A stretch of DNA of 64,000 nucleotides from a virus (IMGVR_UViG_2595698222_000001:12031-76030); one strand, 5' to 3'; counted from the first letter of the stretch, positions 25,480 to 63,286 are shown. Numbers and translations: made by a program. The notes: a model not told the origin generated them from the letters alone.

Positions 25480-25777
25480 AAATAGCAATTTAACAAAGTA
25501 TAACTTAGGGTATCACGCACGCAAAGTAATTGATGTTAGCACAATATTAAATAATGTTGCTGATTTAATGGAGGCTGGTTATTATGGTGGCGATCTGGTG
25601 TTACAAGGGTATGCGCCTCCTGACACCTACAATAGTAATTCCTGGGGACTTATACGGTGGGTAGCTGGATCTTCTGGTATAGCTTATTTGCAATTTGTAC
25701 AAGATCGCAGTGCTGCCATTATTACCAGGTCTATTAGTAGGACGGGTAATACGGATACAGGCTGGATATTACATTAA
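25480..25777 (+). other. silent tail-fibre tip cassette 1a (98 aa)
   Basis: starts at AAATAGCAATTT (NSNL); GYY...W..W pattern of fibre knob domains; stop overlaps AAATGATCATTT. Confidence 0.8.
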
Positions 25778-25786
25778 AATGATCAT

Positions 25787-26090
25787 TTAATCCAGTAGCA
25801 CGAATCGAACATAGTAACCAGCATAAATTGCGGCACTTGATTTAATTACGTTAACCTGTAAGGTATTGCAGTCTATCCTCGTTATTCCGTCCATGGTCCG
25901 CAGATCTGACCATGTGCCAGTAGATAACTGTATTTGTGCGGCCAATAGGTATGTATTACCAGATGAACTTCCACTGATGTTAAATAGTTGGTTGGTAGAC
26001 GTATCATTAAATACCCCGGCGGCAGTGCGGATGCGACTTGTGTCAAATTTGTTGTTCAGATTATTACTTACTCCCGCTAAATTGCTATTT
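25787..26090 (-). other. silent tail-fibre tip cassette 1b (100 aa)
   Basis: manual translation NSNLAGVSNNLNNKFDTSRIR...YVRFVLLD*; no start codon. Confidence 0.8.
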
Positions 26091-26104
26091 AAGGAGATCC
26101 ATAA

Positions 26105-26530
26105 ATGAAAGATTATAAGATTTTTATAAACATAACAAAAGAGGTTTTAGATTCCGTGAAACCAGGTGATTTAGTAAAAGTCAACGATTGGAAAAAACCG
26201 TTGAAGGTAATTGCTGTCTCTGATAATTATTTTGTGATGGCAAGGAAATTGTTTGGAGAATGGGAGTATTCGGTTTGTGAAAAGAAACCTTGGGGTGGAA
26301 TAAGATATAACGCAATGATTGGCGGCAAATTTCATATTGGTACAGATGGTTGGGTATTTGGTTCTCCGACATGGATTGATTTTGATTGCGAGGGATATGA
26401 CTTTGATAATTTGGAAGCGTCCCAAGCTTACATAAACTCATTTGAGTTATCAGAGGATAACAGGGATCATTCTTTTATTTCTCCACGCAATGCCGTGCCG
26501 ATAGCCAGTATTTATATTAAGTCAAACTAA
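26105..26530 (+). CDS. phage hypothetical protein
   Basis: AAGGAG RBS directly abutting cassette site. Confidence 0.7.
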   Translation: MKDYKIFINITKEVLDSVKPGDLVKVNDWKKPLKVIAVSDNYFVMARKLFGEWEYSVCEKKPWGGIRYNAMIGGKFHIGTDGWVFGSPTWIDFDCEGYDFDNLEASQAYINSFELSEDNRDHSFISPRNAVPIASIYIKSN

Positions 26531-26636
26531 ACCACGGGTTCCGGCGTGCATGGGAAGCCGGATTAAATGCGGTCAATCAGGTGGTGGCATCTGGGCGTAA
26601 AGCAGCCCGTAACTGAATTTGTGGAGGTAAGTAGAA

Positions 26637-26966
26637 ATGAAAAATTCTAAGGTCATAGCAGCCGATGAAGAAATAATGAAAACTGCTTCAGATACTTTTT
26701 TCAGACAGTTAGTTGAGTGGATGAACAGTGAAAGTATTGAAAACACTGATAGTCTCCAAGATGCTGCTGAGATTGTCCGGAAAGAATTTCTACAGAAAGG
26801 TGACTGGTACAATGCTCTGGTAGATTCCATTGCCCAGTATTTGAGAACCATTCCAGCCAATAAAGGGTTATACAACGTTGCAGAGGAGCTTGCTGATCGT
26901 ATTATCGGAATAGAAAATTTGGAAGGAGATATCCATGGACAAGAAAGAATTGGCAAGGCTCATTGA
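26637..26966 (+). CDS. phage hypothetical protein
   Basis: GGAGG RBS, 109 aa. Confidence 0.65.
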   Translation: MKNSKVIAADEEIMKTASDTFFRQLVEWMNSESIENTDSLQDAAEIVRKEFLQKGDWYNALVDSIAQYLRTIPANKGLYNVAEELADRIIGIENLEGDIHGQERIGKAH

Positions 26967-61300: not shown

Positions 61301-62731
61301 TTACCATCAGTATTGTTTGGTGTGATATGGGTACCTATACAGACTTTTTTCACTACAACATTACCTGGATTAATAGGTGGAGCAATAAGTGGTTTAGGTG
61401 CAAGCATTGCCGGTGGAATAGCAGCATTGGCCGCAGCTCTTGGAATAAGCGTAACTGCCGCAGCTGCACTTGTGGTAGGTGTAGTTGTTGCAGCTATAGC
61501 CACAGTAGTATATGCTTTTACACATTGGGATGAAATTAAAGAATTTTGGACAAAGAAAGTTCCTGAATGGTGGAACACTTCCGTGTTGCCTTTTTTTGAA
61601 TCTATTCCAGATAAACTCTCTGCAGTGTGGGATAAGGTAAAGTCTACAGCTACTTCTTCATGGGATAAATTGATTCAATATCTGACTGGCATACCGGGGA
61701 AAATAGGAAATATTGTTACAGACATCGCTGATTGGTTTAATGAATTACCTGGGAAGATTGGATATGCTTTAGGGTATGCTCTGGGAACCATTACAAAATG
61801 GGGCTTAGAAGTAGCAGAATATATGGCTAAGAAAATCCCCGAAATAATAGCTTCTGTGGTAAAATGGTTTTCTGAAATGCCTGGGAAGATATATACTGGA
61901 ATTTCTACCTTTATAACAAATGTTGCAACCTGGGGAACAGAAATTTACAATGCATTTAACCAAAAAGTATCTGAAATAATTGTCGGCACTGTGAAATGGT
62001 TCTCTGAAATGCCCGGGAAGATATACGATACAATAATAAAAATCAAAGAGAAAATATCAACATGGGCCACGAATACCGTATCATTTTTTAAAACAGAGGT
62101 TCCTACTATTGTAGATAAGGTGATAGAATTCTTTGGAGAATTACCGAAGAAAATGGTTACTATAGGCGAAAATGTCATTAAAGGTCTATGGGAAGGTATT
62201 ACGAATTTGACGGACTGGCTGGGAACTGGTATCGCCTCTTTTACTAAAGGCGTAATTGATGGGTTTAAAAAAGGCTTTGATGAACATTCTCCCTCGAAAA
62301 AAGCGTTCCAGATTGGTGATTATTTTACCATCGGAATGATGAATGGTATTGAGGATAAATTTGGTGTAATTTATTCTAAAGTAGATTCTTTTGCTGACAA
62401 ACTAACAGATTATAATATTTCTCTGCCATCAATAGATACCAACGTACAAGTCAGCAGGGAATTCTTTGATATGGTAGATACAAAAGCCTCTGTTTCCTAC
62501 GATACACCTTCTTATGATTTTAAGGCCGGCATATCCGCAGAATTGCATGCAGCGTTATCTGGAATTATTGATTATGAGAAGATGGCAAAGACTATGGCAC
62601 CGATTGTAGCTGATGCGTTAGAGCATGCAGATATAAAAGCAAAGATTGGTCAGCAAGAAGTTTGGAAAAGTACAAAAGATAGTTGGAATCAGGATTATAG
62701 AAAGTTAAAAAAAGCACCAGTACCAATTTGA
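58364..62731 (+). CDS. tape measure protein
   Basis: 1455 aa, Ala/Gly-rich helical repeats with periodic W/F. Confidence 0.9.
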   Translation: MSDVIDDLKVQIDASTNSADAKIDKFIQKMMSLQSAISGIEMSGASQVASGINQIASSIQSFNERTKTADFSRITVGLNKLSAVDVQGVSNTAHAMESFANSINGIGNLKFDTETLNNIANSISKLGRASVTEATQNLEFLKTSMADFVSGMNNVGSLNFNPDSLYKLVSSISRLGGINATQAVKNLPQISTSLHSFVSSMNSVGGVTFNIEGLNSLVNNISHLGGAKATQATANLKPIKDQLLRFVSGLNGIGALNFDTSGLENLVSSITKLGGKSASNAIPNIQNLGISLRNLMATLSSAPRVSNNLIQITNALAKLASSGSKVSSASVAMSNGLKSYTGRTGKAMLGIKGLAASIGMFYARWWAVIRGMKGLWKATEASMDYIETLNYFDAAWGQVADAGVKNWEKSGYESAEAYAKSFSKRAQELTGKMSGFMADENGNLKSTGAVSLGIDPERLMNYQATFGQMASSMGVASETALQLSNALTMIGADLASVKNLNFKDVWEDMASGMVGMSRTLDKYGVNIRNVNLQEKLSELGIMAKVSALNQQDKALLRAIILLDSTRYAWGDLASTLDAPSNQLRLLQSNFANLARTIGNLFLPIVAKVLPYINALVIALQRLFSWVGGLLGIKVGDFSSSIGSAATDFGDMEDAADGIADSTGDAAKNTKKMADNLQGFDKLNVVSSKDSSGGKGGSGGVDGGLLDEAFLNSLSEYQKVWEAAFANVENSAQAMADKIVNAFKVGDYYGIGKYIGDGLTGALESISWSAVYSIAGGFGTGLAEFLNSLISPELFGAVGKTIAGALNTALYTALAFGIAFDWTNLGYSSANGINNFFNTFDFASAGAAVNVWAKGLLDALIEALDNINWSLIGTKIGTFLESIDFIEIGGKVGEAIWKAINAGIELWGSSFKTAPVETTMLTAFGLLKFTGLGKLLSGKIMRSLAKGLSFSGIGTLLVKAFPRSTIITTITTTMAQTGASLPSVLFGVIWVPIQTFFTTTLPGLIGGAISGLGASIAGGIAALAAALGISVTAAAALVVGVVVAAIATVVYAFTHWDEIKEFWTKKVPEWWNTSVLPFFESIPDKLSAVWDKVKSTATSSWDKLIQYLTGIPGKIGNIVTDIADWFNELPGKIGYALGYALGTITKWGLEVAEYMAKKIPEIIASVVKWFSEMPGKIYTGISTFITNVATWGTEIYNAFNQKVSEIIVGTVKWFSEMPGKIYDTIIKIKEKISTWATNTVSFFKTEVPTIVDKVIEFFGELPKKMVTIGENVIKGLWEGITNLTDWLGTGIASFTKGVIDGFKKGFDEHSPSKKAFQIGDYFTIGMMNGIEDKFGVIYSKVDSFADKLTDYNISLPSIDTNVQVSREFFDMVDTKASVSYDTPSYDFKAGISAELHAALSGIIDYEKMAKTMAPIVADALEHADIKAKIGQQEVWKSTKDSWNQDYRKLKKAPVPI

Positions 62732-62737
62732 TTTAAG

Positions 62738-62779
62738 GGCCATAGACTCTTCCAATGTGGATAGCCTATGGCCTTTTTT
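62738..62779 (+). terminator. intrinsic terminator after tape measure gene
   Basis: GGCCATAG/CTATGGCC stem followed by T6. Confidence 0.7.
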
Positions 62780-62791
62780 GTTTTATTATTA

Positions 62792-63074
62792 AAATAGCAA
62801 TTTAACCGCTTTAGGCGATAACCTTGGTGGCAAGAAAACCATTTCCGGGGTCACTGAGGTAACCCTTGATGCCAATGGATACGGCCTAGTTAATTTTGGC
62901 TATGTGTTTGCCAACACCTACACTAATGTTATTATTAGTAACAATACGGGGTTGTATTTCCAGTACGAAATCTACCCTGGAGGTTTTGGCGTGTGGGTAT
63001 TTGATGCAAATGGAACAAAGCTAATTAATACGAAAATCTGGGTCACATGGATAGCTCATGGGACGGCAAAATGA
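62792..63074 (+). other. silent tail-fibre tip cassette 4a (93 aa, gp53-like)
   Basis: manual translation NSNLTALGDNLGGKKTISG...VNFGYVF...VTWIAHGTAK*; stop inside AAATGATCATTT. Confidence 0.8.
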
Positions 63075-63102
63075 TCATTTAATATTTTTTGACAAGTGAT
63101 TC

Positions 63103-63286
63103 TTAAACCAATTTGAAGGCTCCCACATAAATGTCATCTATAAATAATTGAAGTACTCCTGCATCATCCCATCTAATAGATGCCCTGGAGGTTATTCGAT
63201 AATTGAGAGCATTTGTTGTATTATTCAATACAGTATTCGTGTTTTCCAATGCACTAGCATTTGCTTTTAATGCTAAATTGCTATTT
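63103..63286 (-). other. silent tail-fibre tip cassette 4b (60 aa)
   Basis: [15 protein letters not shown]...IRWDDAGVLQLFIDDIYVGAFKLV*; N-terminus matches cassette 2a, C-terminus resembles 3a. Confidence 0.8.

Follow-up and report, generated by a model that had tools for sequence, protein, structure and literature searches.

Eight two-site tail-fibre tip cassettes at four dispersed loci of a prophage: a candidate system of single-cassette exchange

We analysed a stretch of 64,000 nucleotides of viral DNA (IMGVR_UViG_2595698222_000001:12031-76030, hereafter the window), which corresponds to G000:C1:1314907-1378906 of a 5.27-Mb genome and covers the greater part of a 75.6-kb prophage, with its collagen-like tail-fibre gene. 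The host of this prophage is a gut-type Firmicute. Our interpretation, to which we assign a probability of about 60%, is that the fibre has an exchangeable tip: eight alternative tips, each encoded in a cassette bounded by two short sites, would be swapped by conservative site-specific recombination, likely by a Xer-like enzyme. The eight cassettes occupy four loci over 38 kb, always as two convergent cassettes between two copies of a 12-bp head site and around a 12-bp tail site. Only one of them is fused to the fibre gene, and pairs 1, 3 and 4 lie 14.6, 6.5 and 21.5 kb from the fibre pair. The components of the proposed system are as follows (coordinates are those of the window; aa, amino acids).

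39986-41038, plus strand: collagen-like tail-fibre gene, expressed, 350 aa; constant part to 40680; Pfam Collagen E 3e-13
25480-26090, both strands: storage pair 1, with head sites 25480-25491 (+) and 26079-26090 (-) and tail site 25777-25788
25481-25777, plus strand: cassette 1a, 98 aa
25787-26089, minus strand: cassette 1b, 100 aa
40681-41298, both strands: expression pair 2, with head sites 40681-40692 (+) and 41287-41298 (-) and a variant tail site at 41033-41044
40682-41038, plus strand: cassette 2a, 118 aa, fused to the fibre gene
41043-41297, minus strand: cassette 2b, 84 aa, silent
47819-48301, both strands: storage pair 3, with head sites 47819-47830 (+) and 48290-48301 (-) and tail site 47976-47987
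47820-47981, plus strand: cassette 3a, 53 aa
47986-48300, minus strand: cassette 3b, 104 aa
48302-49974, minus strand: CSD/CarD-like insert with CSD and CarD_TRCF_RID domains, between the direct head sites 48290 (-) and 49975 (-)
49975-49986, minus strand: lone ninth head site, opening 5 codons; on the outer side it has the pre-portal flank conserved in relatives, similar to that of the pre-portal site of G413
62792-63286, both strands: storage pair 4, behind the tape-measure gene, with head sites 62792-62803 (+) and 63275-63286 (-) and tail site 63069-63080
62793-63074, plus strand: cassette 4a, 93 aa
63103-63285, minus strand: cassette 4b, 60 aa
15207-16244, plus strand: candidate Xer-like tyrosine recombinase, 345 aa, PF00589
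63402-63429, plus strand: candidate attR, one of two direct repeats of 28 bp; the left copy (candidate attL) is at genome position 1302681

The head site, AAATAGCAATTT, is present in nine exact copies in the window (25480+, 26079-, 40681+, 41287-, 47819+, 48290-, 62792+ and 63275-, plus 49975-). Shuffled versions of the window contain 0.10 copies on average, and none of 100 shuffles reaches nine. The whole genome has 11 copies, the nine of the window included. No copy in the window has a single mismatch; all further matches carry two. When read in the frame that encodes N-S-N-L, the eight paired sites open 98, 100, 118, 84, 53, 104, 93 and 60 codons, respectively. Multiplied together, the genome-wide frequencies of frames that reach the observed lengths give 1.5e-8. 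After shuffling of the cassette DNA, frames of at least 53, 84 and 100 codons appear at frequencies of 0.029, 0.0037 and 0.0012. The upstream frame continues only into the site at 40681, where the fibre gene contributes 236 open codons, against 0-19 codons at the other sites. The pairs span 611, 618, 483 and 495 bp, the two cassettes lying tail-to-tail with stop codons 4-28 bp apart.

The original prediction had described the 12-mer at eight positions, a common N-S-N-L frame opening 53-118 aa, a single copy fused to a gene (40681) and convergent pairs of about 480-620 bp. An exact-match scan recovered all eight positions, the frame holds for the eight paired copies, 40681 is indeed the sole fused copy and the measured pairs range from 483 to 618 bp. 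The ninth copy at 49975 (-) and the tail palindrome had been overlooked. The same prediction stated that no cassette has a convincing start codon or ribosome-binding site of its own. Cassette 1a may be an exception, as an in-frame TTG at 25472 has an AGGAAG 8 nt upstream. This is a possible start, so 1a may be translated independently. It is also one of two observations in favour of the view that the repeats and frames occur by chance or that the remote frames are small independent genes, the other being that the protein P0011 (68 aa) begins 8 codons before a 4b-type cassette. However, the frame lengths and site counts, compared with shuffles, exclude chance, and homologues of the cassettes end full-length fibres, which speaks against small independent genes. 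We consider this explanation effectively refuted.

The homologues in question place silent cassettes of the window at the tips of fibres elsewhere. The first 241 residues of P0003 (332 aa) are 93% identical to the fibre of the window, and its tip, joined at N-S-N-L, is 1b at 99%. Similarly, the constant part of P0007 (327 aa) is 91% identical and its tip is 68% identical to 4a. Hence, tips other than 2a and 2b do occur on this fibre in relatives. A 61% relative of cassette 1a ends each of the three proteins P0008-10, which have other N-terminal parts, one of them with a BppU_N domain; two of the joints read N-S-N-L and that of P0010 reads A-N-N-L. A further relative of 1a is fused in G423 (L078). 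Cassette 4b matches the last 60 residues of the 160-aa P0012 at 98%, and in L042, where another fibre gene has its expression locus, the silent partner is a relative of 3b (79%). Relatives of the remote frames 1a, 3b and 4b thus end or partner other fibre genes. Cassette 3a is 48% identical to a cassette of L005 which is itself 73% identical to 4b. Structure prediction, which had been proposed as a check, was partly conclusive. The AlphaFold model of 2a (predicted local distance difference test score, pLDDT, of 79) matched the receptor-binding protein (RBP) heads of phages TP901-1 and p2 (2f0c, 4hep and 2bse; Foldseek E 2.7e-5, probability 1.0, template-modelling score 0.63-0.66), and this tip is predicted to have the beta-sandwich fold of the lactococcal-phage-type RBP head; the model of 1b gave no clear match, as detailed below. 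Taken together, the protein comparisons identify the silent cassettes as genuine fibre tips.

A search with the constant region alone retrieved 16 distinct contigs, 13 of which carry the exact 12-mer after more than 200 open constant codons. In the remaining three, one site follows 28 open codons, one contig ends inside the site and L007 has no site. L007 (about 10100-10260) encodes a 2a-type tip on another constant region, with neither the head site nor the A-L-K-A-N-A-S-D-L neck, and is a fixed, non-switchable version. Scans of viral contigs with 1a, 1b and 4a gave no matches, a metagenome scan with P0002 gave two loci only, a family-wide genome search with 1b (one genome sampled per genus) gave 3 of 401 genomes, G000 included, and a search of the genus with 4a found no genome besides that of the window (1 of 49).

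The second site is the palindrome AAATGATCATTT, located at the tail-to-tail junctions. Three of its four exact copies in the genome are at the junctions of pairs 1, 3 and 4 (25777, 47976 and 63069), while the junction of pair 2 has the variant GAATGATCACTT at 41033-41044. Head (AAAT-AGCA-ATTT) and tail (AAAT-GATC-ATTT) have identical arms and differ in the centre, which is asymmetric in the former (AGCA) and symmetric in the latter (GATC). The tail site provides the stop codons of both strands. In 39 non-redundant pairs from the window and its relatives, it is exact in 15, has one mismatch in 13, two in 8 and four or five in 3, whereas random positions within cassettes mostly differ from it by 5-7 mismatches.

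When the window is compared with its relatives, DNA homology begins and ends at the head and tail sites. For example, the DNA of 1b (25776-26090) is 92% identical (88% in protein) to a cassette in the pre-portal slot of G417:C42, and that of 2a (40677-41045) has 97% identity to L006, against just 78% for the constant region; in L006, the 2a relative is silently oriented beside a different partner. Homology of 2b extends over 41034-41305 in L022 (90% identical) and 41034-41298 in G417:C20, and that of 3b over 47975-48304 in L042. Conversely, the flanks of the slot behind the tape-measure gene (62455-62803 and 63275-63487) match G417:C47, which has other cassettes between the same sites. We grouped 78 cassettes into 61 families. 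Twelve families have at least two members, and 8 of these 12 occur with at least two different partner families. Some families have fused, partner and stored copies in different genomes; these state labels use a threshold of 130 codons, which wrongly labels the genes with short constant regions in L077, L079 and L081 as 'storage'. Because the breakpoints fall at two 12-bp joints and partners change, the unit of exchange appears to be the single cassette and not the pair. The tail palindrome is what shifts the unit from one to the other. Judging by these breakpoints, cassettes have passed one at a time between the storage and expression slots of relatives, with crossovers precisely at the head and tail sites.

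Cassettes could also move by homologous recombination or gene conversion through a short conserved neck. Up to 46 nt are 85% identical past the head site (40681-40726 and 63241-63286), and an identical 605-bp pair is apparently present at two loci of G422 with differing flanks, both as expected from such a process. However, most cassettes have only 12-14 bp in common, breakpoints also fall inside the 12-bp tail junction, outside any longer stretch of homology, and the flanks of the storage slots are unrelated to the fibre gene. We therefore regard homologous recombination as very unlikely, and retain site-specific exchange.

The dispersal of the cassettes is not a peculiarity of this prophage. 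The original prediction placed three silent pairs 7-22 kb from the expression locus; the measured distances are 6.5-21.5 kb, and the comparison with related prophages that it called for shows that pairs recur at the same module junctions in syntenic relatives. In G413, one pair is at the fibre, another immediately before the portal gene and a third behind the tape-measure gene. G444:C2 has four, in the slot equivalent to pair 1, in the gap between the sigma-like and tail genes, at the fibre and before the portal gene. G417:C42 has three, with a relative of 1b in the pre-portal slot, and G438:C1 has two. The 1b family is thus found in a storage slot here, in a different storage slot in G417:C42 and at the expression site in P0003. 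The constant 5' part with start-less 3' cassettes and the same in-frame head site throughout are features of shufflons. The clustering of cassettes beside the constant gene is absent here, as it is in G413, G444 and G417:C42.

In most multi-pair relatives, the slots coincide with three junctions at which the order of the late genes departs from the canonical one (terminase, portal to tape measure, tail-fibre-lysis), which is retained in the single-pair relatives L010 and L075. The window shares these slots except for the one between the sigma-like and tail genes, which has an ATPase gene instead; a degenerate head site in that place (34131, two mismatches) was discarded since the alignment is unconvincing. 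The head and tail sites may have caused the permutation of the late genes. They may also have captured cargo. The 1.67-kb CSD/CarD segment is missing in G413 and G444, whose pair lies immediately next to the portal promoter region. A segment between direct head sites that is absent in relatives is the footprint expected from the integration of a circle, and we suggest that the insert arrived in this way, by site-specific integration at a head site.

The boundaries of the prophage include all these sites. A 28-bp direct repeat, present at genome position 1302681 beside a 420-aa integrase and at window position 63402-63429, bounds the 75.6-kb element, and all nine head sites lie within it. This contradicts the description of the surroundings of pair 3 as a 'host-like island', as does the presence of a LexA-like gene (60% identical) in the same position before the pre-portal pair of G444.

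We propose the following scheme. Each cassette would be a coding unit with neither promoter nor start codon, set between a head and a tail site, with the N-S-N-L of the head site serving as the in-frame joint to the constant part. The recombinase would join head with head and tail with tail. Inversion between 40681 (+) and 41287 (-) would toggle 2a and 2b, the latter being one flip away. Inversion between 40681 (+) and a remote minus-strand head site would fuse a remote tip to the fibre and flip the intervening DNA, which a second inversion, between tail palindromes, would restore, with the net effect that one cassette is swapped. A double crossover between two copies of the phage genome would give the same product without the intermediate. 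The overall scheme would amount to a natural recombinase-mediated cassette exchange. In the engineered version, a unit with two sites that do not cross-react is swapped by double crossover. We infer the order of the steps, the identity of the enzyme and an exchange frequent enough for a switch.

The enzyme acting at these sites is most likely the product of 15207-16244, judged by its domains and its distribution. It matches PF00589 (2.8e-29) and, at its N-terminus, the SAM-like PF13495 (1.5e-9), its best NCBIfam models are XerA, XerD and XerC, all under their equivalog cut-offs, and the nearest solved chains are 4a8e, 5hxy and 1a0p (archaeal XerA, XerD). No other recombinase gene is closer to the cassettes: 9 kb separate it from pair 1, and it lies 25 kb upstream of the fibre site; no invertase is adjacent. 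Homologues are encoded in all five IMG/VR proviruses with pairs (97, 89, 84, 43 and 42% identity) and in all six multi-pair prophages that could be assessed, although these are mutually related; many single-pair prophages have none. We found no serine recombinase in or near the prophage (PF00239 has five matches in the genome, the nearest 136 kb beyond the end of the window), and the product is not an integron integrase (TIGR02249, 53 bits for a cut-off of 265; NF011946, 33 for 435). An SOS-like box upstream (GAACATACATTC at 15067, one mismatch from GAAC-N4-GTTC) lends no support to SOS control, as such boxes are present 16 times when 16.9 are expected.

Several observations weigh against our interpretation, and we bring them together here. 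Some concern the enzyme. A homologue (E <= 1e-40) is found in just 14 of the 49 genomes of the genus. In a hand count of the 22 genomes with fully listed sites, 15 have convergent pairs and only 4 of these 15 a homologue. In complete genomes such as G415 and G426, the sole recombinases near the pairs are integrases, 37-51 kb away. The conserved arms of 4-5 bp are short for the site of a tyrosine recombinase. These pair carriers that lack a homologue make it a serious alternative that the sites are served by a host enzyme or by one acting in trans, in which case 15207-16244 would do something else, for instance resolve multimers. Unrelated phages of the genus that lack the homologue (G415, with two prophages, G423, G420, G426, G409 and G424) have identical sites at head and tail, and there is a precedent in the accessible text of PMC6109161, which describes an 8-bp fibre inversion in Bifidobacterium with no recombinase nearby and proposes an enzyme in trans. 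On the other side are the consistent presence of the gene in multi-pair prophages and the fact that no candidate host enzyme was identified. We judge a host or trans-acting enzyme to be rather improbable, and the Xer-like product remains our candidate.

The other adverse observations concern the tips and the switching itself. The model of 1b (pLDDT 86, a beta-sandwich) has no Foldseek match at E <= 0.001. The sequence data for the strain consist of the assembled Logan contigs of four runs (X1-X4), aligned to 31001-51000, and these contain no rearranged joint between any two sites. Two runs, free of letter differences on the listed pieces, bridge the fibre pair in the reference orientation only. 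None of the 39 pairs was found in both orientations, and there is no inverted block between slots in the five syntenic relatives, so that the inversion intermediate is unobserved. Since contigs drop rare variants, the lack of rearranged joints is weak evidence. The contig pieces of X1 have no cover at 40016-41285, 47604-48543 and about 32371-34300, from which we conclude nothing. Loose ends at 40681/40715 in X2 and X3 were rejected as recombinants: they are the contig of 4b matching its 46-nt look-alike. G422 was likewise rejected as a case of inversion heterogeneity. There, the 605-bp contig L082 (G422:C42) is exactly one pair, from head site to head site, and contigs L093, L095, L096 and L097 end 72-73 bp past the head site with four different flanks, which fit an identical pair at two loci.

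The lack of rearranged joints and of inverted blocks would also be expected if the local fibre pair were at most a two-state switch and the remote pairs were spares or leftovers, rarely traded on an evolutionary time scale by co-resident or co-infecting phages, and no programmed eight-way switch of one lineage. This explanation can also invoke that cassette exchange is documented only between genomes and that programmed inversions, among which tail fibres are enriched, favour short distances according to the accessible text of Milman et al. 2023 (PMC9881135). Long inversions are tolerable in some phages, as a cyanophage preprint (10.64898/2026.02.14.705889) describes, in the part available, invertible regions of about 30 kb that coexist as isomers in phage stocks. 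Three observations speak against rare exchange. The seven silent frames are intact and the nine head sites perfect, as expected under continuing selection. In several species, the slots are the same and remain occupied, but by different cassettes. Finally, the 99% identity of 1b between a storage slot here and an expression site on a 93% identical fibre indicates a recent move. We thus regard rare exchange as unlikely, and favour active exchange of single cassettes.

The exchange may extend beyond one lineage. The 12-mer is present in 48 of the 49 genomes of the host genus. Tandem head sites 21 bp apart, within N-S-N-L-D-N-V heptad repeats, are observed in L077 (9926/9947), G423:C7 (944981/945002) and G424:C35 (1093/1114). 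Those of L077, L079 and L081 are in short fibre-like genes of unrelated phages, the gene of L077 being a 173-aa open reading frame (ORF) with an ATG at 9788. The occurrence of tandem sites in unrelated fibre-like genes shows that the joint is common to several types of constant region. We tentatively envisage a communal pool of tips across the genus, in which each tip is mobile and a Xer-like recombinase moves single tips between an expression site and storage slots at the junctions of structural modules, within genomes and between unrelated phages, and whose sites may have permuted the late blocks and captured the CSD/CarD cargo; in this broad form the proposal is possible but less than even in our estimation.

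Further genes of the prophage present in the window are listed below.

about 600-10000: replication genes
7457-10024: helicase-methyltransferase fusion, the methyltransferase being the C-terminal part
11162-12904: first DNA methyltransferase
16712-17734 and 17786-18547: DNA methyltransferases after the recombinase
28687-29694: DUF4062 gene
30294-31994: large terminase
32001-32444: sigma-like regulator
32453-34021: Sll1717-family P-loop ATPase gene (NCBIfam E 1.7e-80; GC 0.30)
34240-36676: tail genes
39044-39973, 39986-41038 and 42617-43264: three collagen-like genes, the second ended by pair 2
before the amidase gene: two small ORFs, putative holins by position only
43897-44799: amidase
upstream of pair 3, minus strand: accessory genes, LysM-GH18 and LexA-like
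50232-62731: portal, capsid, tail tube and tape measure

The recombinase gene is ringed by three methyltransferase genes and the helicase-methyltransferase fusion, and the tail site contains GATC. The late genes are divided into two permuted operons. We rejected the possibility that the structural module was scrambled in this strain because the order is the same in five syntenic relatives (G413, G444:C2, G438:C1, G417:C42 and L006), which makes it a trait of the lineage. A 43-nt promoter-like element (ATTCCCACA.TTCCCATT..TAATATGATAA.ATG.TATC) precedes both the tail-gene block and the block from portal to tape measure (34162-34204 and 50000-50042, 86% identical). A terminator-like hairpin element is found three times (6839-6880, 13513-13554 and 29701-29742, up to 90% identical), behind separate gene blocks. 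The ATPase gene at 32453-34021 fills the gap between the sigma-like and tail genes where G444, G417:C42 and L006 carry a cassette pair, and may be a moron of the defence type that took the place of a storage slot. The ORF 41377-41805 (142 aa), immediately downstream of the fibre pair, is present in nearly all relatives (41-57% identical) whatever their cassettes. Considered as a possible enzyme or accessory factor, it has only weak coiled-coil-like matches in Pfam and none in PHROGs, and is probably structural. Further to the right, shorter matches to the integrase region (window-equivalent 64279-66960) suggest the remains of a second related element next door.

Systems with some of these traits are known. 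The R64 shufflon (Rci) and the vsa/hsd loci of Mycoplasma pulmonis rely on a tyrosine recombinase acting on sites with a short conserved core, and in M. pulmonis inversion connects silent 3' gene parts, spread across a larger locus, to a single expression site. These are pilus and surface genes of plasmids or cells, not of viruses, and we know of no counterpart of the tail site in either system. The unrelated CSD/CarD insert between direct head sites resembles a captured integron cassette, but there is no attC-like folded site and the cassettes are 3' parts of genes instead of whole genes. The pair at 40681-41298 has the anatomy of a G or C segment (Gin/Cin). As in the window, fibre C-termini are chosen by inversion in Min (p15B), Gin (Mu) and Cin (P1), according to the portion of PMC6109161 at hand; unlike here, these systems have a serine invertase beside a single clustered segment.

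A close likeness is with the Rin shufflon of Bifidobacterium prophages integrated at dnaJ2. In the accessible text of Mavrich et al. 2018 (PMC6109161), its cassettes form a cluster, its rix sites measure 11 bp and an armless tyrosine invertase is encoded next to them. Both systems have one constant RBP N-terminus and several start-less, variable cassettes for C-termini similar to the TP901-1 RBP head, short asymmetric sites at the 5' end of the cassettes (11 bp in Rin, 12 bp here) and an armless Xer-like tyrosine recombinase separate from the prophage integrase. They differ in that the Rin cassettes, as described there, sit together, with the constant gene on one side and rin next to them on the other, while three of the four pairs here are 6.5-21.5 kb off, the candidate recombinase is 25 kb away and each cassette has a second, palindromic tail site. 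The shufflon of BV01-like Phocaeicola phages (PMC13596623) is also phage-encoded and multi-cassette, with directional 10-bp motifs; in the text available, it comprises three cassettes within a 1.7-kb window that has a recombinase at its flank, and its configurations coexist in reads. In contrast, the eight cassettes of the system described here are distributed among four loci spanning 38 kb, and the system is known from assembled sequence. A full-text literature search, with supplementary files (including the tables of PMC9881135 and the figures of PMC6109161) outside its scope, returned neither genome-dispersed fibre cassettes nor a cassette with head and tail sites. The original prediction is borne out in what it observed and partly supported in how it interpreted this. 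We conclude that the system is a variant of the tail-fibre shufflons known from phages (Min, Rin), from which it differs in that its slots are dispersed, each cassette has two sites and the candidate recombinase is remote.

Tail-fibre switching is a classic hedge of phages on their host range, and, to our knowledge, the described systems all keep a few alternatives in one small segment beside the invertase. If exchange is active, the layout reported here would give each phage many more specificities than a Mu-type switch, and would account for a spread of tips from phage to phage that leaves the remaining genome undisturbed. Unrelated phages of a single host genus share these joints. The system would provide a natural and compact set of two sites, of 12 bp each, for the in-frame exchange of domains, and a testable example of a virus in which site-specific recombination spans tens of kilobases.

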